Assembly: GCA_030622135.1 (NCBI GenBank)
Contig: JAUXGL010000003.1
Span: 1-61,902, forward strand
From: Deltaproteobacteria bacterium
GTDB taxonomy: Bacteria > Myxococcota > B64-G9
Length of the DNA: 61,902 nt
Direction of reading: 5' to 3'
Below are positions 18,324-32,175 of the stretch, in pieces. Made by a program: the position numbers and the translations under genes. Numbering within the stretch: position 1 is the stretch's first letter; every line of letters starts with the position of its first letter. Below the pieces are notes generated by a model. That model was given only the letters and a program-made list of their open reading frames with translations. It was not told where the DNA came from and ran no database searches.

Positions 18324-19352
18324 TCATTCCATGCCCTCCAGCAGGCTGGAGATTTCTTCAGGTGAGGGCAACTGGCCTTTTAGCTCCTTGGGTAAACGCT
18401 TGATGGTGCGATAGGTCGCGACGCCAACGGGTTTGCGGGCATCGTGCAAGGCGTATTCGACTACCGTCCGGTTTTTTTCTTTGCAGAGTATGATGCCGAT
18501 GGATGGGTTTTCGTCTTCCATGCGCACCTGGCGGTCGAGGGCGGCGAGGTAGAATTGCATCTTGCCCACGAACTCGGGCTGGAACTTGCCGATCTTGAGC
18601 TCGATGGCGACCAGGGCCTTCAAGCGGCGGTGGTATAGCAACAAGTCAATGAAGTATTCGTCGCCGTCCACCTCCAGCCGAAACTGGCTGCCCACGAAGG
18701 CAAACAACCCACCCATGGTGCGAAGGAAATCCTCGATACGGGCAATGAGTGCGCGTTCTAGCTCGCGCTCGGAATGTTCCTCGCCAAGTTCCAGAAAATC
18801 GAAGGTGTATTCGTCCTTGACGGCAAGTTTTGCCTGCGCTTGAAGCTCCGGGGTGAGAGCCTGGTCGAAATTGGTCTGGCCGAGCAGTGTCTTCTCGTAG
18901 CTTTGGTTTTCAACCTGATGCAGCAGGACATTCCTGGACCACCCGAATTTGCGGGTCATGCGGAGGTAGAACTCCCGTTCCTGCGGGTCTGAACAACGCT
19001 GCAAAATAACGAGATTGTGGCTCCAGCCGATTTCTCGCACAAGCAGTGCGAGTTTTTCAGAATCTGTGTACGCTTCGAAAAAGGCCTTCATGCGCCAGAG
19101 GTTGGAGGTGGAAAAACCGCCAACTCCGGGGAATTCAGTTCGCAAATCCTTGGCCAGTTGTTGAACAACCGACTTGCCCCATGTATCTCCGGCCTGCCGC
19201 TCCAGGATCAGCTTGCCGATATCCCAATACAGGCCGACCAGCTCGTTGTTGACCATCTTGAGAGCTTGATACTGGGCGGCACGGACTCGCTCTTTGATCT
19301 CGATCAGCAGGCCTGCGTAGTCTGCGGGAAGCTGGAGTGAGTTTTTGCTCAT
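18324..19352 (-). CDS. DUF1016/YhcG-family PD-(D/E)xK nuclease
   Basis: 342 aa from the ATG at 19352. Family-typical LVGLYWDIG, GFS.SNLWRMKAFF, SWSHNLVIL, and the core FIDLLLYHRRLKALVAIELKIGKF. ATGA overlap with the upstream gene. Confidence 0.85.
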   Translation of the reverse strand: MSKNSLQLPADYAGLLIEIKERVRAAQYQALKMVNNELVGLYWDIGKLILERQAGDTWGKSVVQQLAKDLRTEFPGVGGFSTSNLWRMKAFFEAYTDSEKLALLVREIGWSHNLVILQRCSDPQEREFYLRMTRKFGWSRNVLLHQVENQSYEKTLLGQTNFDQALTPELQAQAKLAVKDEYTFDFLELGEEHSERELERALIARIEDFLRTMGGLFAFVGSQFRLEVDGDEYFIDLLLYHRRLKALVAIELKIGKFQPEFVGKMQFYLAALDRQVRMEDENPSIGIILCKEKNRTVVEYALHDARKPVGVATYRTIKRLPKELKGQLPSPEEISSLLEGME

Positions 19353-19810
19353 CCCACCAACTCCTCGAAGTTGGCGGTGATGGTCTTCGCCAGTTCCGTC
19401 GCTTCCTCGCGGGCGTGGTCGATGACGCGGATCGTGAGCTTCTGCACCTCGTTGATCTGTTTTCGTAGCGAGGCGAAACGGGTAACAAAGGGCAAGAAGC
19501 TCTCGTGGAGTGCCCGCTGCTGGGCGTTGGTTGTCTTGGTGCCCGCGCCTTTCTTGCCGGCCCAAGTCTGCAAGTCCTTGAACAGCGTAATTCGCTCGGA
19601 CGTGAAGGTGACGATCGTTTCGGTTCGCTTCTTCTGGATAGCCTTGAAGTAGAACACCGCGACATCATCGACCCCGTCAGCAGGGTCGTGCTCAAGTACA
19701 ACACGCTGAACCTTGGAGCCTTCTCTGAGAAGCTCTGCGGCTTGGCGCCAGAAGAACAGACCCTGGTAAACATCGCCTTCCGTACGTGAACCTACCTGTC
19801 CGAGCGCCAT
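19349..19810 (-). CDS. small DUF4297-like PD-(D/E)xK nuclease-domain protein
   Basis: 153 aa. EGDVYQGLFFWRQAAELL...VVLEHDPADGVDDVAVFYFKAIQKK resembles the N-terminal nuclease core of DUF4297/Cap4-type endonucleases. The TGATG junction overlaps the upstream stop by 1 nt. Confidence 0.5.
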   Translation of the reverse strand: MALGQVGSRTEGDVYQGLFFWRQAAELLREGSKVQRVVLEHDPADGVDDVAVFYFKAIQKKRTETIVTFTSERITLFKDLQTWAGKKGAGTKTTNAQQRALHESFLPFVTRFASLRKQINEVQKLTIRVIDHAREEATELAKTITANFEELVG

Positions 19811-21405
19811 CACGCACCTCCTGTCGGAAGCTCTTCGGCCAGGCGCGCGAAGAGCTCGATGCAGGCAAAGCAAATCGATGCGGCGTAGGCCGTGGTCAGC
19901 TTGTCCTCGAGGTGTTGACCCAGATCGCCGGCGCTCTTGACGTGCTCGACGAGAATGTAGCTCGACCGCGTGACATGCTTGGCGACCGTGGGTAGGTTGC
20001 CGTACCCACCTGTAATCTCCCGGAGGACCGCACACTGTTGTCCGTCTTGCTTCGGGAACACTCGTTGCGTGCGTTCGATCGGCTTGACCCCGTCCTTCTC
20101 TTCGCCTTTCCAGGTGTCGATCCAGGACTGCGGCCACTTACCAGCATCCAGCTCTGCATCCCAGATGAGCTCAAGCGCCCGACGCGAGATGAGCCGGATC
20201 GAGTTGAGTGTCTCCGCTGGTCCCACCGCCAGCTCCCGGGTGGCTCGCTCGACATAGCCTCGAAGCTTCGCGTCCCCCCCAGGCACTTGCGCCAGTCGGA
20301 GTTCGAGAACTCGTTGGATCTGTTTGGCGTACAGGTCTTCTGTCAGAAACAGCCTCTTGAGCTCGACCGCTTCACTACCATGGCGGAGTGCCATCTTCTC
20401 CATGAAGCGGCAGTTCAGCTTGGGCTTCCTGCTCGGCGTGAGAAAGCCACGCTGGGCGCCAAACAGAGCACGGTCCTGCGGAATCGAATCCGCAGCGGGT
20501 TGTTTGGCGGCGAGCGCATGAAGGTCTCCGCGCACCTCGATCGGGCAGTCATCCCACAGGTGTTGGAGCAGTGCGTAGGCGCCGCCGGCGATGGCCTCCG
20601 CTTTCTCGTTCACTGCTTGTCCATCGATTTTCGAGCCGGAGCCAGCGGTTTCAACGAGACCACGGCACAAAAGGGCAACCAGAGCTGGGTGACCACCGGA
20701 CCAGTTGAAGATCTCCTTGCGCGCCGACGTGGCAAGATTCTCGACGTGAGCGGCGAGCGGAGCCAGGACCATGTCCTGTTCGTTCTCTTCGAATGGCTCC
20801 AGCACAACCACGGGATCTGCAAAGATGTTCCAGAACTCCGAAGCCAGCGAGTCGGGGTTGTTGCAGAGATCCTGAATTCGACGCCTTGTTCCTGTCACAA
20901 AGGTGCATGACGACTTCAACCCGATTTCACGTAGATAGTCCCAGAGGTTACGGCTGATCGTCGGAGAGCTGAGGACGTGATCGAGCCCGTCCATGATCAC
21001 CAGAAGCCGACCGGTGTCAGTGAGGTAGTCGAAGACCCCCGCCAGCACCTGCGGGAGATCCTCTTCGGTTGTTTCGAGGTCGATCAGTTCAGCGGATTCA
21101 TCGTTCGCATTCTTCAGAGCCGCGTGCACTTCATCGAGGAGTCTTTGACGAAACTCGTGATCCGTTCGAGGCGTATGGTAACGCAGGTCTAGAAAGGCCG
21201 ACGTAACATAGCCGCCGCGCTCAGGACCCACGACGCCGGCGAGATGGTGGAGGAAAGTGGTCTTGCCGATGTACGGCGCTCCAACCATGGAGATGTGGTC
21301 GCCTGTCGCCTTGCCGATTCTGCTCAGGACTGCATTCAGCACCTTCTGACGGCCGAGCATAGGTACCTGAGGAGCATTGGCCAGCGGGTAGAGGTCTTTG
21401 GTCAT
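19810..21405 (-). CDS. NACHT-like STAND P-loop NTPase with helical C-terminal domain
   Basis: 531 aa from the ATG at 21405 (ATGA overlap with the upstream gene). Walker A GAPYIGKTT and Walker B LLVIMDGLDHV (NACHT-style DGLD), followed by a helical C-terminal region. Confidence 0.7.
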   Translation of the reverse strand: MTKDLYPLANAPQVPMLGRQKVLNAVLSRIGKATGDHISMVGAPYIGKTTFLHHLAGVVGPERGGYVTSAFLDLRYHTPRTDHEFRQRLLDEVHAALKNANDESAELIDLETTEEDLPQVLAGVFDYLTDTGRLLVIMDGLDHVLSSPTISRNLWDYLREIGLKSSCTFVTGTRRRIQDLCNNPDSLASEFWNIFADPVVVLEPFEENEQDMVLAPLAAHVENLATSARKEIFNWSGGHPALVALLCRGLVETAGSGSKIDGQAVNEKAEAIAGGAYALLQHLWDDCPIEVRGDLHALAAKQPAADSIPQDRALFGAQRGFLTPSRKPKLNCRFMEKMALRHGSEAVELKRLFLTEDLYAKQIQRVLELRLAQVPGGDAKLRGYVERATRELAVGPAETLNSIRLISRRALELIWDAELDAGKWPQSWIDTWKGEEKDGVKPIERTQRVFPKQDGQQCAVLREITGGYGNLPTVAKHVTRSSYILVEHVKSAGDLGQHLEDKLTTAYAASICFACIELFARLAEELPTGGA

Positions 21406-24400
21406 GATTCCGATCTCCCTTCCTGTACCGCGAGCTTGAGCAGCTCCCTGCGGTCGACGTTCCGCTCGATCCACAGACCCATGAGTGGGACCGTGAGCCG
21501 ATAGACATGGAAGGTGCCGTCCGGCACCTGTGAGATCAGCTCCAGCTCCCTCAGGTGATCGAGGTCATCGCGTAGGCCCTCGACGCTCACGACGTCGCCA
21601 TAGCCAAACCCGGAGCCATCACCACTTCCGCTGCCGTATCCGGAGCCATCGCCAAATCCGGAGCCATCACCGCTCCCGCTGCCGTATCCGGAGCCATCGC
21701 CGTATCCGGAGCCATCGCCGCTCCCGCTCCTGCTCCTACCGCCGAATACATCGTCATAACCGTAACCAATACGAGCGGCCTCGAGCTGGTTCTGCAGCAA
21801 ATCGAAGGTGACGGGATCCGGACCATCCTGGAGGTCGTGGCACAGTTGAAGGACGTACCGTGTGCGCTCCGAGCCAGCATAGCCCCACAGCGTGCGAAAG
21901 TGCTCATTGTCACGGATCATGTCCTCGACTGCGGCATCCACCTGCTTCTTCGAAACGTGACGGACCTCCTCCGCTACGGCCCTATCGAACACCCGAGCGC
22001 ACAGGAGTTGGATGAGGAAGGGATGACGTGCACACAGGGTGGTGATCCGCTCGATGGCGTCTGGTTGGTAGGCCAAGCGACCAGCGACAGGCTTTTGGAC
22101 AAGATCCTCCGCGGCACCTTGCGGGAGGACGGTCACGGAGATTGCGAAACCGAAACCAAACAGTACGTTCCAGTACTCCTCGCGCAGCCTTCGGATCCGT
22201 CGTGAGCCGGTGAGAATGCCTGCCATGCCGGTGTTGTTCTGGAACAGGTAGCGGATGTTCTCCGGTACCTGCGGGCTGGTGACGCCTGAGTCGATACCCT
22301 CCTGTAACTTGTCGAACTCATCGAGCATCAAGAGCAGGCGCCTCGGCGCAACGGCATCGACGGCCACGGCTACCAGCGAATCCAGCGATGTGAATGCAGC
22401 TCGCTCCCTAAACCAGGCATTCACCAGGCTGGGCAGCTTCATGTGTACAAAGGCCTTGCGCTTCTTGTCCGGCCACTGGAGCAAATCGTCGGGCGTGCCG
22501 GGGATGGGGAGTGGATATCCAGCGAGGGCACAGTCTCCCGCAAGCGCTCGGCCAATCGTCTTGAAGACCTCGTCGGTGGGAACGCCAACCTTCGTGCTGT
22601 CACCGGCCGAAGCCTGAAAAGAACAGTACACCGGGACGTGGGACGGGAGTGTATCTGGCCGTTGCAAGCTTTTGAGGATAGAGGTCTTGCCGGTCCGCCG
22701 GTTGCCTTCGAGCAGGATGACGTTCGCGACCCCGTCCTGGCTGAGATGCAGCCGCATCTTGTCGAGGATGTCTTCTCGACCGAAAAACATCTCGGGCCTA
22801 TCAACAGGGTTTCCCACGATGTAAGGGCTCGAACCCATCGCTTCGGGCTCAGTGTCCTTGGCTGCGTGGTCTTTAGCCTCGCCGAGGCTCAGGTCGACGG
22901 TGACCTCCCCCTTGACGGGCTCGAGCGTAGCTGTTGTCCCCTTCCAGGACAGCGTGGCTCGAAACGAATCATCGAGTTCATCGGGGATGCCGATCACGTA
23001 GCGCTCTTCCTGCTCTCCAAGCAGCATATCCTCAGAGATCTTGCGCAAAAGCACGGAAGGCGAAGCGCTCAAGGCTGCTTCGATCCGCAACAGGGGCGCA
23101 GAACCCGCATTGCGTACTCCGATCGTTACCGTTCGTCCAAGCTCCGGCGTCTCAAAGAGCACGCCTTGTTTCACCGTCGGGCCGGGGTCAGGCATCTCAA
23201 AGAGTACGTTTTGCCTCGAGTGGGAATTCGGATGGATCTGGAAAGCCTCGATAGCTACATCGCGTACCAGCGAGCGGCTTGCGTGGATCAACAGGAACCA
23301 TGCCGAGTCCAGCGCTCGCTCCAGACCTCGGCTGTGTGCCCGGAGGCCCTCGGGAATGGACCGGCTGGCCTCCTTCAGGGCCGTAACGACGGCCGATTGG
23401 GCGGACACTTGAATGGGCACAGCGGAGGGGGCCACCACATCGGTCGCCACACCCGCCAGACCATCAGCGATCGGATGTAGCGCACTCACCCAGCTCGAAA
23501 TCTCATCGCCGATGTGGAGCCGGATCGGATCGTCCGCCGCAGCGAGCGCACGTGTAAGCCCCTTACCGAACAGCCGGAGCACCGCGACGGGGTCTTCTTG
23601 GGTCTCCGCAGTGCGCGCGTGGGCGAGCGCGTTTCTCAGTTGGCGGACCGCCTGCACAGCGGGGTCAGATTCCAAGTAGGTAACCACCGGGTGAGTGTCT
23701 TCGGTGAGAACCAAGCGAAGCAAAGCGAGAGCGTCGCCTCCGCGATTCTCGATGGCGTCCGCGATGCGCTCCTGGATCGGGATCGGTGGGCGGGGCAGTC
23801 GGATACGCTTGAGAACCGATAGCGAGAGATGTTGAACAGCGATGCCACGGGCCTGAGACTTCATTAGCTCTTGAAGAGCTGGCGATCGCAATAGCCCACC
23901 CAGGTAACGACTGGACACACCCTGCCGCGGCCGAACGACGATGACACCGTTGGTGGCGATGCACCCGACGCTTCCATTGGTTACCGTTCCAACCCGGCCG
24001 ATGCTGCCTGAAGTGGTCACCACGAGGTCGCCCAAGCGCAACACCTGTCCCTCTTTGGCTCGCTGCACAAGCTCTTGGCGTGCGAAAAGCGATGGGGACT
24101 GCACTCGCCGTTCGTTGACATCGCGCACACGGATCAGGCCTCGGGTTTCCTCGGCTGCGTTGATGTCCTCGGTTGTCTTTGCGCGTGTGTAGCCCAAGCC
24201 GTTGCTCAGAGACGCCATCTCGCCCAAGGACACTACATCCACGTCGTCGAGCTGTTCGAGCTCTGTCAGGGTGACCTGAAGCTCTTCTTCCGCCGCAGAC
24301 GGTGCGATGAGGTTCCAGTCGTGTTCGGCAAGCTCTGACAAGCCAACAACGCGAACGGGACCGTCTGTAGATTCACCTCGGACCCAAGAGATAATCCTGT

Positions 24401-25598
24401 CGAGGTCGCGGTCCAGGTTGAGTGTCTCTCCAAGTACGTTAAGATCGACAAAGCGTACCTGCTTTGCGCTGCCGGTCTTGGAGAGCACCAACAGGGAGAT
24501 CTGAACGCCGGTGTAAGGCAGAAAAGACCCGGTGGGCAGTTGGAGAACGGCTTCGAGGTGATGGTCCTCGATCAGCCACTGCCGCAAGGCCTGTTCCGCG
24601 CCGCCACGAAAGAGAAGCCCGTTCGGCACGGCAACGACAGCTCTTCCCCCAGGACGAAGCGAAGCCATGGCGAGTTGGAGAAAGGTCGCCTCCAATGTGT
24701 TTGTCTTGAAGGGGAGATGCTCGTGTACGGTGGCTTCGCGCGGGCTGCGCTTGCCCCAGGGCGGTACCGCAACCACCACGTCGAAGCGCTGGGCATGTCC
24801 ATTTTCCAGCGGGCGCTGAAGCGCATCTCCGAGAACAAGGCCCGGGTGGTGAACGCCAGCCAGCAGAACTCGTACAAGGCCGATGAGGTGAATGGCGGGC
24901 GAGATCTCCACACCGAAAACGCTCTCTGCCTGAACGCGCTCCCATAACTCGGCAGTGTGAAACTCCGCTGATTGCTGCAACTTGTCGATGCACCGGATGA
25001 GGACCTCCCCCGAACCAAAACAAGGGTCAAAGATCCGTTCACCAGGCGCGGGCGCCGCAAGGCGTGCCATTAGCTCTGCCACCGCCGGAGGGGTCGCATA
25101 GGCTCCACTGTAACGAGACTTGGCGACAGTCTTTCGAAGCAGGTCTCCAAATATCTCGCCGGCGCGTCGCTGGTCAGCATTGGTCTCAAAGGGCAGCTCG
25201 GCCACGGCCTGTAGCAGGTCTTGGAGATCACCGTGTGAGCTGAGCGCATCTTTGATGCTTGGATGCGAAAAATCGACAGAGAGGACGTCGGGGCGTGCTT
25301 CAGCCAGGGCGGGCACGAGCTTGTCTTGGACGTAACCCGCGAGATCAGGTCCCTGCAAGCCGGACCAGGTGTCCCATGCGAGTTCACGCGGCAGCATGTG
25401 CTCGTAGTTCTCGTCGTTGAAGAGCGCGATAGCCTCGCGCTCGGCATCGATCAGGTCGACCCAGCGCAGCAGAAGCAACACCGCCAACTGCGGCAGGGTC
25501 TCGGTCCACGGGTCGACGGCGTTGCCCCTGCGGGCATCGGCCGCCGACCACAAAGCGTGGCTGAGCCTGTCTTCGATGCTGGTGGGGGTGGGCTGCAT
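21402..25598 (-). CDS. fusion protein: HsdM-like N6-adenine methylase module + single HsdS-type TRD + STAND/Arch-type ATPase + low-complexity G/S/D/Y insert
   Basis: 1398 aa from the ATG at 25598. HsdM_N-like LWSAADARRG..LLLLRW. Motif I FDPCFGSGE (25005-25031). Motif IV reads VPPW. TRD-like LGEMASL.NG..., ...ATNGVIVVRP, ...HLSLSVLKRIRLPRPPIPIQERI. FFGRE + Walker A GNRRTGKTS (22680-22706). Walker B LLLMLDEFD (22311-22337). Confidence 0.8.
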   Translation of the reverse strand: MQPTPTSIEDRLSHALWSAADARRGNAVDPWTETLPQLAVLLLLRWVDLIDAEREAIALFNDENYEHMLPRELAWDTWSGLQGPDLAGYVQDKLVPALAEARPDVLSVDFSHPSIKDALSSHGDLQDLLQAVAELPFETNADQRRAGEIFGDLLRKTVAKSRYSGAYATPPAVAELMARLAAPAPGERIFDPCFGSGEVLIRCIDKLQQSAEFHTAELWERVQAESVFGVEISPAIHLIGLVRVLLAGVHHPGLVLGDALQRPLENGHAQRFDVVVAVPPWGKRSPREATVHEHLPFKTNTLEATFLQLAMASLRPGGRAVVAVPNGLLFRGGAEQALRQWLIEDHHLEAVLQLPTGSFLPYTGVQISLLVLSKTGSAKQVRFVDLNVLGETLNLDRDLDRIISWVRGESTDGPVRVVGLSELAEHDWNLIAPSAAEEELQVTLTELEQLDDVDVVSLGEMASLSNGLGYTRAKTTEDINAAEETRGLIRVRDVNERRVQSPSLFARQELVQRAKEGQVLRLGDLVVTTSGSIGRVGTVTNGSVGCIATNGVIVVRPRQGVSSRYLGGLLRSPALQELMKSQARGIAVQHLSLSVLKRIRLPRPPIPIQERIADAIENRGGDALALLRLVLTEDTHPVVTYLESDPAVQAVRQLRNALAHARTAETQEDPVAVLRLFGKGLTRALAAADDPIRLHIGDEISSWVSALHPIADGLAGVATDVVAPSAVPIQVSAQSAVVTALKEASRSIPEGLRAHSRGLERALDSAWFLLIHASRSLVRDVAIEAFQIHPNSHSRQNVLFEMPDPGPTVKQGVLFETPELGRTVTIGVRNAGSAPLLRIEAALSASPSVLLRKISEDMLLGEQEERYVIGIPDELDDSFRATLSWKGTTATLEPVKGEVTVDLSLGEAKDHAAKDTEPEAMGSSPYIVGNPVDRPEMFFGREDILDKMRLHLSQDGVANVILLEGNRRTGKTSILKSLQRPDTLPSHVPVYCSFQASAGDSTKVGVPTDEVFKTIGRALAGDCALAGYPLPIPGTPDDLLQWPDKKRKAFVHMKLPSLVNAWFRERAAFTSLDSLVAVAVDAVAPRRLLLMLDEFDKLQEGIDSGVTSPQVPENIRYLFQNNTGMAGILTGSRRIRRLREEYWNVLFGFGFAISVTVLPQGAAEDLVQKPVAGRLAYQPDAIERITTLCARHPFLIQLLCARVFDRAVAEEVRHVSKKQVDAAVEDMIRDNEHFRTLWGYAGSERTRYVLQLCHDLQDGPDPVTFDLLQNQLEAARIGYGYDDVFGGRSRSGSGDGSGYGDGSGYGSGSGDGSGFGDGSGYGSGSGDGSGFGYGDVVSVEGLRDDLDHLRELELISQVPDGTFHVYRLTVPLMGLWIERNVDRRELLKLAVQEGRSES
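21597..21743. repeat. in-frame 48-nt tandem repeat (about 2.75 units) encoding SGSGDGSG(Y/F)GDGSGYG
   Basis: The peptide GGRSRSGSGDGSGYGDGSGYGSGSGDGSGFGDGSGYGSGSGDGSGFGYG is read directly from the ORF. The DNA shows repeating ccggagccatc(a/g)cc units. Confidence 0.85.
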
Positions 25599-25602
25599 GG
25601 TC

Positions 25603-26778
25603 TCAGAGCTCTCCCGCAAAGGCTTTGCGGAGGATGGCTGCGCGGAAAGTTGCCGAATCATCAATGCCGTACTCTTTGCAGAGCGCAGTTGACGCTCGCC
25701 AAGCCTCGTCCAAGCGCTCGATCAAGACTTGTTGCACTGCTAGTTTGGGAACTGGAATCTCGACTGACCGAAGCCTTTTTCCAGAGATCTTCACCATGCT
25801 CTGGCTACTACCCGTTGCTCTTTCTTGAATCTGTTTGCGAGTGTCAGGAAATCGCAATGTATACATTAGGTACTTAGGAAGAATGATCGCATCATTTGCG
25901 CAGAGACGAATCATCAAGTCTGGATAGATAACTCGGTCTTCGACTGCGGCCTCAGCAATAGCCGATAACCCGACGAATTCGACAGTGTTGGCGCGCGAAA
26001 TGAATACGTCGCCAATAGCAACTTGGTATTTCTTGGCAACTCCGTCATCCATTTCGACCCACTTGAACTTTGACACGTCCAGATGTGGTTCGCGTACAGA
26101 TGCCAACGTCAGGATGCGCCCTGTCCCATGATCGCCCAATGATTTGATTGACCTGCCGTTTCGACTGTCGACCAGGATGTTGTCCATGGTCATCATGTTC
26201 GTTCCGGCATCAGTCTCCGCGCGATGCAGAAAGGAGCCGAATAGCGCCTTTGCCTCATCTTCTGCCTTATTGCGCAACCTCCGCAGCTCATCCACTCGCT
26301 CCATGGCATCACGAATTCGCGTCACGATGCGCTGTTGTTCATTGAGTGGGGGAGTGGGTATCTCAATCGACTCCAACTTCCCCTTTGTTATGTGTCGCAA
26401 TCCGACCCCGCCATGGGCCAGCTCGATCATCTCATCAAGCTGGGAGTTGACCGCATGCAAGAAAAACAGTGGGAGTATTCTCTTCGGGTCAACAAGGACT
26501 TTGAAGATGTGTTGATTGAGGACGGCATTACCGCCATGCCATTGGAAACACCCAAACGACGTGCCAGGCGTGCCCGACCATGAAAGCAGAATGTCACCGC
26601 TTTCGATAATGTGCTTATCCTTGACCTCTCCATTGTAGCGATTGAACGGCTTTGATGGATTGTTGAGGTTCTGTATCCGGACGATCTTCAGTCCTTCTTT
26701 GGTCCAGTCAGATGGCTTGAAGGCTCGTCCGTTGACAAGGTCGCATAGGTCACCAATGTGGGTACGCCTCCAGTTCAT
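25603..26778 (-). CDS. hsdS: type I restriction-modification specificity subunit
   Basis: 391 aa with two TRDs separated by the conserved spacer PPLNEQQRIVTRIRDAMERVDELRRL. C-terminal conserved helix ...AILRKAFAGEL. ATGA overlap with hsdM. Confidence 0.9.
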   Translation of the reverse strand: MNWRRTHIGDLCDLVNGRAFKPSDWTKEGLKIVRIQNLNNPSKPFNRYNGEVKDKHIIESGDILLSWSGTPGTSFGCFQWHGGNAVLNQHIFKVLVDPKRILPLFFLHAVNSQLDEMIELAHGGVGLRHITKGKLESIEIPTPPLNEQQRIVTRIRDAMERVDELRRLRNKAEDEAKALFGSFLHRAETDAGTNMMTMDNILVDSRNGRSIKSLGDHGTGRILTLASVREPHLDVSKFKWVEMDDGVAKKYQVAIGDVFISRANTVEFVGLSAIAEAAVEDRVIYPDLMIRLCANDAIILPKYLMYTLRFPDTRKQIQERATGSSQSMVKISGKRLRSVEIPVPKLAVQQVLIERLDEAWRASTALCKEYGIDDSATFRAAILRKAFAGEL

Positions 26779-28295
26779 ACCTCCCCCTCCAACATCTCCT
26801 CTAACTCCCCAAGAAGCTCGAAGATCCGCTCTTCTTTCGTCTTGATGGATCGCACCAGCTCCAGCGCCGGAACGTGCTCGTAGTCGTCTTTCTTGTTGGG
26901 GTTACGAGCCGTGAGGTCCCAGCCATCTTCCTCAAAGGCAACCTCATCGAACTCGACCACCCATGAGTTGTCGCCCTCGACCTGCTTCTTCCGCTTCTTG
27001 AGAAAATCGGGGAGTTGGCTGCCCTCGATTGGTTTGCGCGTCTGCTTCAACTCGAAGCCGTCGTTGGTCAGCTCGTAGAACCAGATCTTGTTTGTGGTAG
27101 CGGCCTTCTTCGGTCGGTCAAAAAAGATGACGTTGGTCTTTACGCCGGTGTAGGGCAAGAATGCTCCGGCCGGCAGAGATAGGATGGTGTGCACCTTGAA
27201 CTGGGTTAGCAGCTTCTTGCGCACCTTGGCATCCGGACCGCCGCGAAACAGCACGCCCTCGGGAAGGATCACTCCCGCTCGTCCGCCCTTGGCCAGGTTG
27301 GTCATGATGTGCTGCAAGAAGAGGATCTCGGTCGCGGCCGACTGGATGGTGAAGTTGCCCTGGGAGTCCCGGTCCATCTTGCCGCCATAGGGCGGATTGG
27401 AGAGGATCACAGAAAAACGGCGCTGCTCGGCCACGTTGTTCTCGTGGCGCTCCAGGGTGTCGGCCAGGGCCAGCTTGGCCTTGTCGATACCGTGTAGGAT
27501 CATGTTCATGACCCCGAGCAAGTAGGAAAGCGGCTTGAGCTCGTTGCCGGCGAAGGTGTCTCTTTGAAAACGCTCGAAGTCTTCGCCGCTCATGTTGGAG
27601 TCGTGGTGCTTGATGTACTCTGCCGACTCGAAGAGAAAGCCGGCCGTCCCCATGCAGGGATCGTAAACGCGGTCACCAAGACGTGGTTTGACCACTTCGA
27701 CCATGGCCTTGACGATGTGGCGTTGGGTGTAAAACTCGCCCGCGTACCCGGCGGAGTCACCGGCAACGTCCTTGAGCAGGCGCTCGTAGATCTCCGACAG
27801 CTCGATAACGTCGGCCTGGCGGCTGAAATCGATCCGTTCGACCTGACTGACCACGCGGGCAAAGCTGCCGGGGCGCCGGCTGTGATTGCGGATCGTGCTG
27901 AAGATGCGCTGGAATTGGAGGCCAAGGGTATCGTCGCCGAGGGTCGTGAGCTTCTCGAAGAGGTCGGCGTTGACAAAACGAAAGACCTCTTCGGGAGTCT
28001 TCAGGCCTTTGACAGCCTTACTCTTGCCGGTGAGCGCGCGAGTCCACGTCGACCAACGGTACTTGCCATTGAGCCGCCTCTCATAGGGCGTGTCCTCGAA
28101 GGCGGACTCTTCTTCTCGGCGGTCCTCCGATGCCTCGAAGGCTTTCAGGAAAAATAGCCAGGAGAGTTGCTCGACGTAATTTCGCGGCTCGACACCGTCG
28201 CTGTTGAGCTGATCGCAGGCATTGTTGACCGCCTGCCGTACATTGTCGCGTCGTGCCTCGGCTCCGTTTCCTGGTTTTGTGGTCTTTGAAGTCAT
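26775..28295 (-). CDS. hsdM: type I restriction-modification DNA methyltransferase subunit
   Basis: 506 aa. HsdM_N-like YVEQLSWLFFLKAF, motif I VYDPCMGTAGFL and canonical motif IV ILSNPPYGG. Confidence 0.92.
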   Translation of the reverse strand: MTSKTTKPGNGAEARRDNVRQAVNNACDQLNSDGVEPRNYVEQLSWLFFLKAFEASEDRREEESAFEDTPYERRLNGKYRWSTWTRALTGKSKAVKGLKTPEEVFRFVNADLFEKLTTLGDDTLGLQFQRIFSTIRNHSRRPGSFARVVSQVERIDFSRQADVIELSEIYERLLKDVAGDSAGYAGEFYTQRHIVKAMVEVVKPRLGDRVYDPCMGTAGFLFESAEYIKHHDSNMSGEDFERFQRDTFAGNELKPLSYLLGVMNMILHGIDKAKLALADTLERHENNVAEQRRFSVILSNPPYGGKMDRDSQGNFTIQSAATEILFLQHIMTNLAKGGRAGVILPEGVLFRGGPDAKVRKKLLTQFKVHTILSLPAGAFLPYTGVKTNVIFFDRPKKAATTNKIWFYELTNDGFELKQTRKPIEGSQLPDFLKKRKKQVEGDNSWVVEFDEVAFEEDGWDLTARNPNKKDDYEHVPALELVRSIKTKEERIFELLGELEEMLEGEV

Positions 28296-28307: not shown

Positions 28308-30602
28308 TCATGCGCTAAGCGGAACGTAGAGATGGCGCTTGACCTCCTCGAGGTCACTGCGCAGTTGCTTGGCGTTTCCGTAGCGTCTGAGCAACTGCGT
28401 GAAGCTGCCAAAGCGACCTACGAACTGCGGGGTGCGGAACGTGCGGGCATCTTCGAGATCATCGACGCCAAACAGGGTGTAGTGGTCGAGGCAGGTCTCC
28501 CAGAATTGCAGGCGAATCCGGTCTTCCTGCGAGATGTTCTCCTCGCCGATATGCGCGAGCAGCCAGTCCTGGTCGTACTCCCAGAAGTGGGCGACACGAT
28601 CCCGTCGCTCGGGAACCCTGACCAGATCAAAGGCTACCTTTGACAAGACATCGACATCGTCCGTCTCCGGGAGGTCGAAGAAGTGGCGAAAGGCGGCTAC
28701 GTGGACATCCTGGTCACGAAGCTCAGCCCGGAGCTCCTGGCGCGTTCGCTTGTCAATCCATGCGTCCAGCAGCGCCTTGAGGTCAGGCGTTACGAGCGTT
28801 CGTATCGCGCCCTTTGATTGCTCCTTGTATTCCTCGAATGGGATCTTGCGTCCATCCGCCAGGCACACGAAGCGGCGGTTGTCAGAGAGCTCGATGGTGA
28901 CTCCCTGCTCGACCGGAATGTCTTTGGGCTCGCTTTTCTTGCGAGGTTTCTTCGCGGGCTTTCGCGACTTGTCCTGATTGGCCGGGTGGCCGTCGAACTC
29001 GGAGTCCTCGAGCGTGCTCGCGCCAGAGTAATCCCAGATCGTGAAGTAGCGCTTGTCGACCTCTGGGTCGTCGCACAATCGAGTGCCGCGACCCTTCATC
29101 TGTTTGTAGAGAATGGAGCTGCGGAGGGGGCGTACAAAGACGATGTTCTTGACGTCAGGGGCGTCGTATCCCGTGGTCAGTAGATCGACGGTGACGGCGA
29201 CGCGAGGATTTGTGCGGCCGACTTCCTGAAAGTTCCGCTCCAGCTGGTGGGAGTTCCTCTCGGCGCGGGTAATTCGCGCGGCGTATTCGGGGTCTCCGGT
29301 GATCCGTCTGAGCTCCTGCGCCATGAAAGCCGCGTGAGTGTCATTGACGCAGAAGACGATGCTCTTCTCGTTCTCGAGCCCGTACCTCTTGAGCTGAGCG
29401 TAGAGGTCTTCCGCGATCCACTTGGTGCGATCCGGCAGAGACACATCACGCTCAAAGTGTTTGGTCTCGTATCGGCGCCCATCGGGGCCGTCGTAACCCT
29501 CTTCGTCGACGTTGGTGATGCGCTGCTCGAGAAGGTAGGGCACCAGGTAGCCATCTTCGATGGCCTGTTTGAGCGAATAGGTGAAAATGGGCTCGCCGAA
29601 ATACTCATAGCTGTCCCGACGGAGTTCCTCGGGGCTAAGGTCCCGGCCCTCTTTGTAAAGCTCACGCGGAGTGGCCGTCAGGCCTAACTGGTAGGCCTTA
29701 CCAAAGTGCTCCAAGACCCCGAACCAGTCGCCAAATCCAGAGCGATGGCACTCATCGATGACGATGAGATCAAAGAAGTCGGCCTCGTAGTGTTCATAGA
29801 GCTTTTTGCCGTCCAGCTCCTCGTCGAGGTTCTGGTAGTTGGCGAAGAACACCTTACCAACTCGGTGGGTCCCGGCTTTGACAGCGTTCTTGTCAATGGT
29901 GACGCGCTCGTCCGTTGGGAAACCATTGAACGCTCGGTAGGCCTGACCCTTGAGGCTGTTGCGATCCGTGAGAAAGAGGACGTTTCCTCGTGGAAGGATA
30001 TCGGTTTGCAGGAGCTTCCACACGAGTTGAAAGACCGTGAAGGTCTTGCCCGTGCCCGTGGCCATGAGCAACAAGACCCGGCGGTTGTCTTGCGAGAACT
30101 GGTACAGCGCCTCAGTGATGGCGCGCTCTTGATACGGACGGACCTTCTTGCGCGAGATCTGATCGACGTGCCAGTCGGCAAGGAAGGCGTCATTCCAACT
30201 GCGGGGGATCATGTTGAGCCCCATATAATGGAGAACATCGCCAGGTGGAGGAGGCGTATCCTGGGTGTGGTACTCGCCAGTCTTGTTGTCAGTGACGATG
30301 TACTCGTGGCCGTTGCTCGCGATGGAGAAGCGGAGGCTCAGACGCTGTGCGTAGCGCGAGCCTTGCTGCATCCCGTCAGATGCGTCTTCGTCCTCCCTCT
30401 TCGCTTCAAGAATGGCCAGAGGCATACCATAGAGCTTGAGGACGTAGTCGGCGACGATGTGCTGATGCTCATCGTACATTCGTTCGCCGGAGAGATTCAC
30501 TCGTCCGGGGCCAATCATCACCTCACGAGACCATGTCCAGCCTGCAGCTTCGAGCGCAGGCTCGATAAGCTCTCGGCAGGTTTGGTTCTCGTTGCGGCTC
30601 AT
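28308..30602 (-). CDS. hsdR: type I restriction endonuclease subunit R
   Basis: 764 aa. N-terminal nuclease region ETCRELIEPALEAAGW...ADYVL...AILEAK. SF2 helicase motifs LLLMATGTGKT and VIDECHR. GAGGAG SD 5 nt upstream of the ATG. Confidence 0.9.
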   Translation of the reverse strand: MSRNENQTCRELIEPALEAAGWTWSREVMIGPGRVNLSGERMYDEHQHIVADYVLKLYGMPLAILEAKREDEDASDGMQQGSRYAQRLSLRFSIASNGHEYIVTDNKTGEYHTQDTPPPPGDVLHYMGLNMIPRSWNDAFLADWHVDQISRKKVRPYQERAITEALYQFSQDNRRVLLLMATGTGKTFTVFQLVWKLLQTDILPRGNVLFLTDRNSLKGQAYRAFNGFPTDERVTIDKNAVKAGTHRVGKVFFANYQNLDEELDGKKLYEHYEADFFDLIVIDECHRSGFGDWFGVLEHFGKAYQLGLTATPRELYKEGRDLSPEELRRDSYEYFGEPIFTYSLKQAIEDGYLVPYLLEQRITNVDEEGYDGPDGRRYETKHFERDVSLPDRTKWIAEDLYAQLKRYGLENEKSIVFCVNDTHAAFMAQELRRITGDPEYAARITRAERNSHQLERNFQEVGRTNPRVAVTVDLLTTGYDAPDVKNIVFVRPLRSSILYKQMKGRGTRLCDDPEVDKRYFTIWDYSGASTLEDSEFDGHPANQDKSRKPAKKPRKKSEPKDIPVEQGVTIELSDNRRFVCLADGRKIPFEEYKEQSKGAIRTLVTPDLKALLDAWIDKRTRQELRAELRDQDVHVAAFRHFFDLPETDDVDVLSKVAFDLVRVPERRDRVAHFWEYDQDWLLAHIGEENISQEDRIRLQFWETCLDHYTLFGVDDLEDARTFRTPQFVGRFGSFTQLLRRYGNAKQLRSDLEEVKRHLYVPLSA

Positions 30603-30657: not shown

Positions 30658-32175
30658 TCATCTCTCCACCCCATATTTCTTGAGCCAGTTCGTTAGCGTC
30701 TGATAGCTCGGGAGGCCCACCAGCTCGGCGGCCTTGGTCTTGTTTCCGCTCGCCTCATCGATGGCGCGCCCCAGATAATGCCTGGCTATTTCTGTTAGTA
30801 AATCCGGTAGGTTGAACTTGCCACCAAGCTGCCGCCCGAACGCCTCCGACCGGCTTGCGAAGCCGGAAGGGAGCAGAGCCTCTCGCGCATCTTCGACGGT
30901 GATCGTCGCGCTGTCGGACCAGATCGCTGCACGTCGGAGCGTGTTGAGCAACTCCCTGACATTGCCGGGCCAGGGATGCGAAAGCATAAGATTTCTTGCC
31001 CCAGCGGAAAGTTTCTTGTGCTTGAACTCAGGTTCGACCATAGCCTCTTCATTCACCTGCTGGAGAAGTCGGTCGATGAGTAGTCCAAGGTCGCCAGCGC
31101 GATCGCGAAGCGGTGGGATATTCAGGACGGCAACCGCCAGTCGGTAAAAGAGGTCTTCACGGAAGCGGCCGGCTGCAATCTCCTCGGTGAGGGTCCTATT
31201 CGTCGCGGCAATGATGCGGACGTTGACCTTGGCGGCTTTGGTCGACCCGAGACGAACAACCTCTCCCTCTTGGATGACCCGGAGCAGCTTCACCTGGGCC
31301 GAACCGGGCAGATCCCCGAGTTCATCGAGAAACAGGGTCCCGGTGTTCGCAGCCTCGAAGTAGCCCTTCCGCGGTTCATTCGCGCCAGTAAACGCTCCCT
31401 TCTCGTGCCCAAAGAGCTCTGACTCCACGAGGTCGTCGGGTATTGCCCCGCAGTTGACCGCTACGAACGGCGCCTGGCTCCGAGTGCTCGCCTGATGGAT
31501 CGCGCGCGCGATCATCTCCTTGCCTGTTCCTGACTCTCCCTCGATCAAGACGGGTACGTTGCGAACCGCTACTCGCCGCGCTCGTTGGATGAGTCGGTCC
31601 ATCACCCGGCTTCGATAGATGATATCGGCGAACTCGGGCGCCTCAGGCGACTCGGCGCCGCTCAGCTCCCGCAAGCGTTCATCGCGTTCGCGGAGCAGAT
31701 CTGGCAGGAAGTCGACGGCGATATCGAACGGGACCTCGGCGGTGCGCACGCCATGGTCCCTTGAAGACTCAATCAGCTCTGCCGGGAACCGTGTCTTGGC
31801 GAGTAGTATCCAGACCGCCGCCATCGCCGGCGTGCCCGGGCTCAAGTGGAAGCTGAGCGAGGCCTCTTTCGCGCGTCCGTCCAGAGCTGCGCTGATCGTG
31901 CGGACGGCAGCCTTGTAGATCTCCCCAAAGTTAGTCGGGCCAGAACGCGGCTCGAATTGTAGGTCGATCTTTGCTGCCGTTCGAGCCCGCACCCACGCGG
32001 CGTAGGGTTTGACCTCCGCCTTGGGATAATCGTGAAGAAGAATGATGCGGTCGAACGCAAGCGCATCCACTGCCTGAGCAATGGGCCCGACTCCGACCGT
32101 CTCCTCCTCCGTTCGTGCGCGGAGATCCGTTCGGCCGACCCAGCTGACAAGAACCTTCTCCATGCCGAAAGACAT
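30658..32175 (-). CDS. RtcR-family sigma-54-dependent transcriptional activator (CARF-type N-domain + AAA+ + Fis-type HTH)
   Basis: The N-domain [32 protein letters not shown] parallels E. coli RtcR's YLIHITTGTHVAQICWFLLAEARYLPARLIQSS. AAA+ motifs GESGTGKE, the GAFTGA loop and FLDELGDL. C-terminal [26 protein letters not shown]. Confidence 0.85.

Follow-up and report, generated by a model that had tools for sequence, protein, structure and literature searches.

The stretch of DNA considered here (the window, 61,902 nt of contig JAUXGL010000003.1, assembly GCA_030622135.1, from the Myxococcota lineage B64-G9) carries a large fusion gene in which a type I methylase-like domain is joined to a single target recognition domain (TRD) and a C-terminal ATPase. 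In the following, FUS denotes the whole fusion gene and its protein, and ATP2 the partner nucleoside triphosphatase (NTPase) encoded by the adjoining gene; FUS, ATP2, and the operon genes upstream of FUS in the window lie on the minus strand. The open reading frame (ORF) of FUS spans 21402..25664, and residues are counted from the TTG at 25664. Its likely start is the ATG at 25598 (M23), 4 nt past the hsdS stop, giving a whole gene at 21402..25598 and a product of 1398 amino acids (aa), which is in line with hundreds of ~1300-aa homologues of the same architecture. An earlier note, made from the letters of this DNA alone, had described a degenerate catalytic motif IV in the methylase-like domain, and translation reproduced its coordinates exactly: V-P-P-W replaces (N/D/S)PP(Y/F/W) at 24756..24767 (residues 300-303), with Val300 encoded by the codon GTA at 24765-24767. 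The motif IV stretch of the translated gene (21402-25598, minus strand) is FDVVVAVPPWGKR, the translation of the ORF 21402..25664 contains ...QRFDVVVAVPPWGKRSPRE..., and a further excerpt of this translation is ...AQRFDVVVAVPPWGKRSPRE....

Compared by BLASTP with the neighboring HsdM (26775-28295), FUS shares 28% identity over 407 residues (E 9e-51), and AVPPWG of FUS stands opposite SNPPYG of HsdM. Likewise, HMMER alignments to solved HsdM chains place VPPW opposite NPPF in 5ybb, 3ufb, 2okc, and EcoKI (2y7c). As both kinds of alignment agree, VPPW can be regarded as motif IV with Val in the place of Asn. Motif I, the binding loop for S-adenosylmethionine (SAM), is located at 25005..25031 (FDPCFGSGE) and is nearly invariant across the FUS family as DPCFGxG. 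Motif VIII at 24600..24617 reads LLFRGG, opposite VLFRGG of the neighboring HsdM and VLFEGG of EcoKI, and its Phe (F352), conserved in at least 90% of the homologues, matches the second base-stacking aromatic of HsdM. Of the signatures of gamma-class N6-adenine methyltransferases, FUS thus features (D/E)PxxGxG of motif I and lacks (N/D/S)PP(Y/F/W) of motif IV. The further statements of the earlier note, that the SAM motif I is intact and that the neighboring hsdM is canonical (ILSNPPYGG), were borne out.

In a model of EcoKI, N266 lies within hydrogen-bonding range of the flipped adenine, which is sandwiched by F269 and F345, and changes of N266 or F269 abolished activity (PMC2647291). The exchange of NPPF or NPPY for APPA abolished N6-methyladenine in four of four PacII-type systems; the N4-methylcytosine made by the mutated subunit was abolished or greatly reduced, with the complex still functional (PMC5100572). 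In Mta1, APPW instead of DPPW serves as a dead allele (PMC11258239). The expectation that Val would cripple catalysis is therefore supported by the EcoKI N266 and APPA mutants. Since the Asn/Asp that hydrogen-bonds the adenine N6 is lost, FUS would not methylate DNA, and loss of catalysis in its HsdM-like domain appears quite likely.

The FUS family was defined via the conserved C-terminal ATPase, independently of the methylase domain. With the ATPase as query, 1,352 clusters at 90% identity and 268 representatives of 50% clusters (E < 1e-30) were obtained, and the full-length matches were nearly all ~1300 aa long with an N-terminal N6_Mtase domain. In a closer set of 147 sequences, motif IV was VPPW in 47, APPW in 37, and TPPW in 13, and its first residue was V (57), A (41), or T (13) vs. 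N (16) or D (4). Among 114 representatives of 50% clusters, this position featured N (40), D (12), S (4), V (21), and A (12), more rarely C (6), T (5), I (4), H (4), and a few others, and only 38 of these 114 diverse members possessed a fully canonical (N/D/S)PP(Y/F/W). The homologue alignment which the earlier note had proposed as its own check hence revealed that Val is fixed in the clade of the window (VPPW throughout in P0005-P0009, P0037-P0041, and L001) and that residues without hydrogen-bonding capacity (V, A, I, C, and others) abound across the family. Across VPPW loci, Val is written as GTA (6), GTT (8), GTG (5), and GTC (3), and the Ala of motif IV is likewise written with all synonymous codons. 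As all four Val codons are in use, the residue has persisted while synonymous sites turned over for a long time. That an ordinary methylase had acquired Val by a mutation in this strain or by a sequencing error, for which nothing was found, is thereby refuted and hardly conceivable, since every close relative carries VPPW, in independent assemblies and with the full range of codons.

The HsdM lineage of the same operons, many members of which share contigs with FUS, was used as matched control. Its motif IV was NPPY (117), NPPF (3), or NQPY (1), i.e., canonical in 120 of 121 members. Compared at the same 38 loci, the FUS methylase domain evolves much faster than that of the co-resident HsdM, with a median pairwise identity of 0.44 vs. 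0.73 for the HsdM catalytic domain. Within FUS, the respective values were 0.49 for the ATPase, which is the most conserved part of the family, 0.34 for the TRD, and 0.25 for the middle region as the fastest-evolving part. On a FastTree phylogeny of the C-terminal 520 residues, at least 22 switches between canonical and non-canonical motif IV occurred, and well-supported sister pairs differ at this motif (DPPF/TPPI, NPPF/NPPI, NPPF/HPPW). Members with APPA (naturally in L017 and L019), VPPV, or HPPV, or without motif I, persist in the family. Among cultured hosts, Calothrix anomala FACHB-343 (L012) features VPPW, and canonical motifs occur in Novipirellula rosea (NPPW, L042) and Marinobacterium nitratireducens (DPPF, L033). 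Nearly invariant, in turn, is the Pro-Pro of motif IV, and the aromatic residue at position 4 together with the motif VIII Phe is kept in ~81% of canonical and non-canonical members alike. None of the 38 canonical members has lost motif I or the acid of motif II; among the 76 non-canonical ones, motif I is lost in 14 and the motif II acid in 10. The family was searched for a conserved polar residue that is confined to the V/A class and could replace Asn; none was found, so that a migrated catalytic residue was rejected. The pattern suggests a pocket which may still bind something, e.g., a flipped base or SAM, without the need for chemistry, with some lineages having decayed further.

Four parts can be distinguished in FUS. 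Residues 169-456 (24297..25160) represent a gamma-class, HsdM-type N6_Mtase-like domain (PF02384, E 1.7e-40), followed at residues 470-640 (23745..24257) by a single HsdS-type TRD and a conserved helix, detected by Pfam as one Methylase_S TRD at 537-640 (E 3e-8) and by PADLOC as Specificity_I. Residues 641-940 (22845..23744), in which no Pfam family was matched, are predicted to form a helical region and then an immunoglobulin (Ig)-like beta-sandwich, and residues 941-1305 (21750..22844) an AAA+/STAND-like ATPase with lid and winged helix. The AlphaFold (AF2) model of residues 23-700, based on 44 homologues, is confident (pLDDT 88.6, pTM 0.87), and its top Foldseek matches are the HsdM chains 5ybb, 7eew, and 2okc (probability 1.0). 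Together with the HMMER match to 5ybb_A (E 1e-47), profile and fold thus agree on an N6_Mtase domain. The model of residues 640-1305 (pLDDT 81.5) shows long helices, the Ig-like beta-sandwich, and the AAA+ domain, for which Foldseek found Orc1/Cdc6 (2qby) and the archaeal ATPases PAB2304 (2qen) and SSO1545 (2fna) to be nearest. The ATPase carries Walker A (GNRRTGKTS) and Walker B (LMLDEFD) and has weak Pfam matches only, to AAA_16 (residues 960-1122, below the cut-off), AAA_22, and nSTAND6.

The TRD of FUS shares 23% identity with TRD1 of the adjacent HsdS, and the HsdS proteins of other loci are equally close. A specificity shared with the adjacent HsdS was rejected, as among 40 HsdS proteins the one from the same locus takes no better than a random rank. 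FUS is therefore not simply re-reading the site of the restriction-modification (R-M) system, because its TRD is related to those of neighboring HsdS proteins only at the family level. Moreover, FUS possesses its own single TRD vs. the separate HsdS with two TRDs in M2S1, and hence does not conform to a type I modification complex. A low-complexity repeat of Gly, Ser, Asp, and Tyr is inserted near the C-terminus (21597-21743). The insert looks lineage-specific, since P0005, a homologue with 85% identity, has 74 aa fewer and the usual length in the family is ~1300-1350 aa. Two larger members of ~1700 aa (P0035, P0036; motif IV NPPW) feature an extra NTPase-like region with AAA_14 and nSTAND6 matches N-terminal to the methylase domain.

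The adjoining gene ATP2 (19810..21405) encodes a NACHT/nSTAND2-like NTPase. Both AAA_16 and nSTAND2 (PF20702, 22.4 bits vs. a cut-off of 24) remain below the cut-off, and the Atlas clusters are NPHP3_N/AAA_22. By hhalign, the FUS ATPase and ATP2 correspond over 277 columns (probability 98.6%, E 5e-16), which identifies them, at the level of sequence profiles, as paralogues; GK(T/S) and an acidic Walker B are invariant in both. Neither PADLOC (2023) nor NCBIfam (2026) nor Pfam contains a named family for the C-terminal part of FUS or for ATP2. The helical C-terminal third of ATP2 (19810-20487) matches no Pfam family and features R393, E441, and H521 (numbered from the GTG start), which are invariant in 34-68 homologues; this region could be an unrecognized effector or a HEPN-like module.

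Upstream of FUS, the type I R-M genes hsdS with two TRDs (25603..26778), the canonical hsdM (26775..28295), and hsdR (28308..30602) were assigned by Pfam. At the head of the operon, an RtcR-like CARF/sigma-54 activator is encoded at 30658..32175 (Pfam Sigma54_activat; PADLOC RtcR_PspF2 CARF_AAA_HTH, E 9e-200). The opposite end of the operon (18324-19810) comprises a DUF4297/Cap4-like ORF of 153 aa and a YhcG (PDC-S02) PD-(D/E)xK gene. These nucleases were not found beside FUS-ATP2 in any of the 79 other loci described below, and are probably lineage-specific add-ons or separate neighbors and not core effectors.

The genomic context was compared across 79 loci from species-representative genomes of many phyla. 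An ATP2-type gene (~530 aa) directly follows FUS in 76 of them, and an RtcR-like activator is located upstream in most related loci. Two main architectures occur. The first, found in the window, runs RtcR-like activator, hsdR, hsdM, hsdS, FUS, and ATP2; the second consists of FUS-ATP2 with or without RtcR. Among the 70 loci with enough upstream sequence, FUS is linked to R-M genes in 46 and unlinked in 24. A canonical motif IV was present in 20 of the 46 linked loci vs. 1 of the 24 unlinked ones (raw Fisher p = 7e-4); an association of both traits is not established, with only 1-3 phylogenetically independent pairs in agreement. In three loci (L058, L060, L061), remnants of hsdR or hsdS lie directly upstream of an intact FUS-ATP2, and R-M can therefore decay while the pair is kept. 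In a Gemmatimonadales locus (L064, metagenome-assembled contig CAVUEU010000006.1), RtcR-hsdRMS-FUS-ATP2 is split into many short frames, owing either to decay of the operon or to an assembly rich in frameshifts.

The head of the ATPase is variable as well. On a Spirochaetia chromosome (L075, OZ241863.1, 7367-11275), a DEAD/Helicase_C head replaces the methylase-TRD part on a FUS-type ATPase, and ATP2 comes next. As this helicase-headed ATPase still precedes ATP2, the head modules appear exchangeable on the NTPase pair. A further FUS-type ATPase (L071) has no recognizable head, and shorter forms (P0085, P0088, and similar) comprise TRD and ATPase with no detectable methylase domain, although these may be truncations.

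The HsdM-like domain of FUS may accordingly be described as a putative pseudo-methyltransferase, which retains its fold, motifs I and II of the SAM pocket, both base-stacking aromatics, and the Pro-Pro turn. Combined with its own single TRD, it would most likely constitute a DNA-binding head that reads sequence, flips bases, and binds SAM. This head is probably a dimer mimicking the M2S1 core, by analogy with the HsdM-S(1/2) protein of Vibrio vulnificus, and would sit on the Orc1/Cdc6-like ATPase, which in turn would work with its paralogue ATP2. The two NTPases would thereby form a conserved conflict or defense module, which frequently follows an RtcR/sigma-54-controlled type I R-M system and also occurs without one. 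The constant core of this module would be the two related NTPases, with the methylase-TRD part as one among several nucleic-acid-binding heads, and it is because of this variety of heads that the domain is read as a dead methylase and DNA reader. A role as SAM/DNA-binding sensor, as suggested by the earlier note, is plausible given the conservation of motif I, the TRD, and the aromatics of the pocket. In particular, the conserved base-stacking aromatics favor real DNA engagement, and the loci without R-M disfavor an obligatory link to HsdR. Overall, a sensor role within a two-NTPase defense module is the best-supported mechanism and reasonably likely.

A number of points weigh against this interpretation. 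A domain with Val at motif IV might still be active. The canonical members, about a third of the family, may methylate, and modification could thus be part of an ancestral or alternative function. The strong retention of motif I could have purely structural reasons. Furthermore, the defense role is deduced from genomic context, with PADLOC and NCBIfam holding no family for the FUS ATPase or ATP2, and no conserved effector was found downstream of ATP2 across the 79 loci, where the neighbors vary (e.g., YhgA-like PD-(D/E)xK genes in 9 loci and a helicase in 5).

Several other explanations have to be considered. An unlikely, though not far-fetched one regards the dead methylase-TRD head as a decoy or guard which mimics M2S1 and, when bound by phage DNA mimics such as Ocr or ArdA, switches the ATPase pair on as in the Ronin system. 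There, an HsdMS pair triggers cell death in response to Ocr and ArdA, and the exchange F287G in its NPPF does not abolish this (bioRxiv 10.1101/2023.04.06.535777). Moreover, no solved protein of this M-S(1/2) architecture is closer than 7eew, which was crystallized bound to Ocr, and FUS adjoins type I R-M genes in the 46 loci mentioned. Binding of a DNA mimic should, however, not need the SAM motifs and base-stacking aromatics, which are conserved nonetheless. Besides, the 24 unlinked loci have no adjacent R-M, with an HsdR-like gene not found by the query used in one of five such genomes, and no RonA-like toxin is known here, ronA-like genes not having been searched for. The HsdM-like N-terminal and catalytic domains retained in FUS would also suit a non-methylating targeting core, in which a FUS dimer replaces M2S1 and loads HsdR for an inducible, modification-independent or abortive restriction. 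This explanation, which is rather doubtful, draws on a locus with full-length hsdR directly 5' of FUS (L042) and on the mobilizable 317-kb Acinetobacter ursingii plasmid pRIVM0002_IMP-4 (L080, NZ_MH220285.1, 194747-202512), where hsdR, FUS (HPPV), and ATP2 overlap as one operon and no hsdM or hsdS is annotated. The PLSDB gene table of this plasmid may be incomplete, making the absent hsdM weak evidence; furthermore, many loci possess no nearby hsdR, and the role of the two ATPases would be left unexplained.

That the domain is still an active methyltransferase, which tolerates Val or methylates another atom or substrate, would agree with the conserved fold, motif I, Pro-Pro, Trp, and motif VIII Phe and with the canonical third of the family. 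This is nevertheless improbable: the substitutions at the first residue of motif IV described in the papers cited here all remove activity (PMC2647291, PMC5100572, PMC11258239), members with APPA, VPPV, or HPPV or without motif I persist, motif IV changes much more readily than that of the partner HsdM, and no compensating residue was found. Slightly more remote is a sensor of the SAM level, whose dead pocket would signal to the ATPase that SAM has been depleted by a phage enzyme degrading it. As such a sensor would demand, 62/76 and 66/76 non-canonical members keep motifs I and II, respectively, but the loss of motif I in the remaining 14, the helicase head of the Spirochaetia relative, and the unexplained retention of TRD and base-stacking aromatics argue against it. 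Returning to the DNA-reading head on an NTPase pair, a more far-reaching version can be proposed tentatively. FUS-ATP2 might be a widespread, unnamed two-NTPase immune module, the head of which is a type I methylase repeatedly turned from writer to reader. Its hydrophobic pocket (V/A, Trp, and Phe) might inspect a flipped adenine, the methylation state of this base, or a DNA-mimic anti-restriction protein and then license the ATPase pair, either in support of the neighboring RtcR-induced type I enzyme or as a substitute for it.

Pseudo-methyltransferases of the METTL14 type likewise keep the fold with a degenerate xPPx and serve nucleic-acid binding beside an active paralogue, as proposed for FUS; unlike FUS, METTL14 belongs to the MT-A70 class, is eukaryotic, acts on RNA, and features neither an ATPase fusion nor a defense context. 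Type I HsdM (EcoKI, 5ybb TteHsdM; PF02384) is the best match of the FUS methylase domain in sequence and structure, and both share the fold, the N-terminal helical domain, motif I, Pro-Pro, and the motif VIII Phe. In contrast to HsdM, FUS has no N/D/S at motif IV and continues into one TRD, an Ig-like domain, and an ATPase. Although a homologue of HsdM, FUS should not be filed as a methyltransferase because the defining catalytic motif fails. The HsdM-S(1/2) protein of V. vulnificus YJ016 (PDB 7eew) also combines an HsdM-like domain and one TRD in a single chain; according to a secondary account, it is a "minimal intact MTase" (methyltransferase), and a pair of its chains restores an arrangement like that of M2S1 (Seo et al., 2022, cited in PMC12429846). 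It comprises 638 aa and, unlike FUS, lacks both the Ig-like and the ATPase part. Its chain A features a likewise non-canonical GVPF where HMMER aligns motif IV, and the protein may itself be a pseudo-methylase.

In the Ronin system of Escherichia coli ECOR55, a type I M/S module is used for sensing and not for modification, and a catalytic mutation in motif IV did not abolish its function (bioRxiv 10.1101/2023.04.06.535777). Ronin differs from FUS by a canonical NPPF, separate HsdM and HsdS, a 61-aa membrane toxin, and the absence of ATPases, whereas in FUS catalysis is probably lost by nature and the output would be an NTPase pair. In addition, the Ronin type usually occurs without hsdR, while the window features hsdR and the conserved neighbor of FUS is an NTPase and not a small toxin. 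Resemblance also exists to the predicted two-gene nSTAND2 NTPase operon of Kaur et al. (2021; eLife, PMC8195603, section 15), which, like FUS-ATP2, consists of two adjacent genes with related STAND-type NTPases. In both cases, variable modules are attached to a constant NTPase core, for FUS mostly the methylase-TRD head, a helicase (L075), none (L071), or a TRD only. The nSTAND2 operon differs in that one NTPase has an eroded Walker motif, whereas Walker A and B are kept in both NTPases here, and in that its fused modules are GT4 or HEPN instead of a methylase-TRD head (PMC8195603). Taken together, FUS would work most like known pseudo-methyltransferases and the Ronin decoy, differing by its natural loss of catalysis, the fused TRD and ATPase, and the second NTPase. 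Esub1, an S-subunit-like protein (PMC11754733), was considered and found not relevant to FUS. A published description of the FUS family was not found in a literature search, which in view of its incomplete coverage is weak evidence of novelty.

In databases, the ~1300-aa FUS proteins are named "N-6 DNA methylase" or "type I restriction enzyme M protein". The methylase name is probably wrong for most of them and would mislead methylome and R-M annotation. The family has changed state at least 22 times, mostly by losing the catalytic residue, and provides a natural series in which a modification enzyme appears to be converted to a nucleic-acid reader, and FUS-ATP2 points to an uncataloged two-ATPase module tied to inducible type I restriction. 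FUS-ATP2 is present in cultured bacteria (Calothrix, Cupriavidus, Pseudomonas, Marinobacterium, Novipirellula, and Geomonas) as well as on the Acinetobacter plasmid, and is therefore directly testable.

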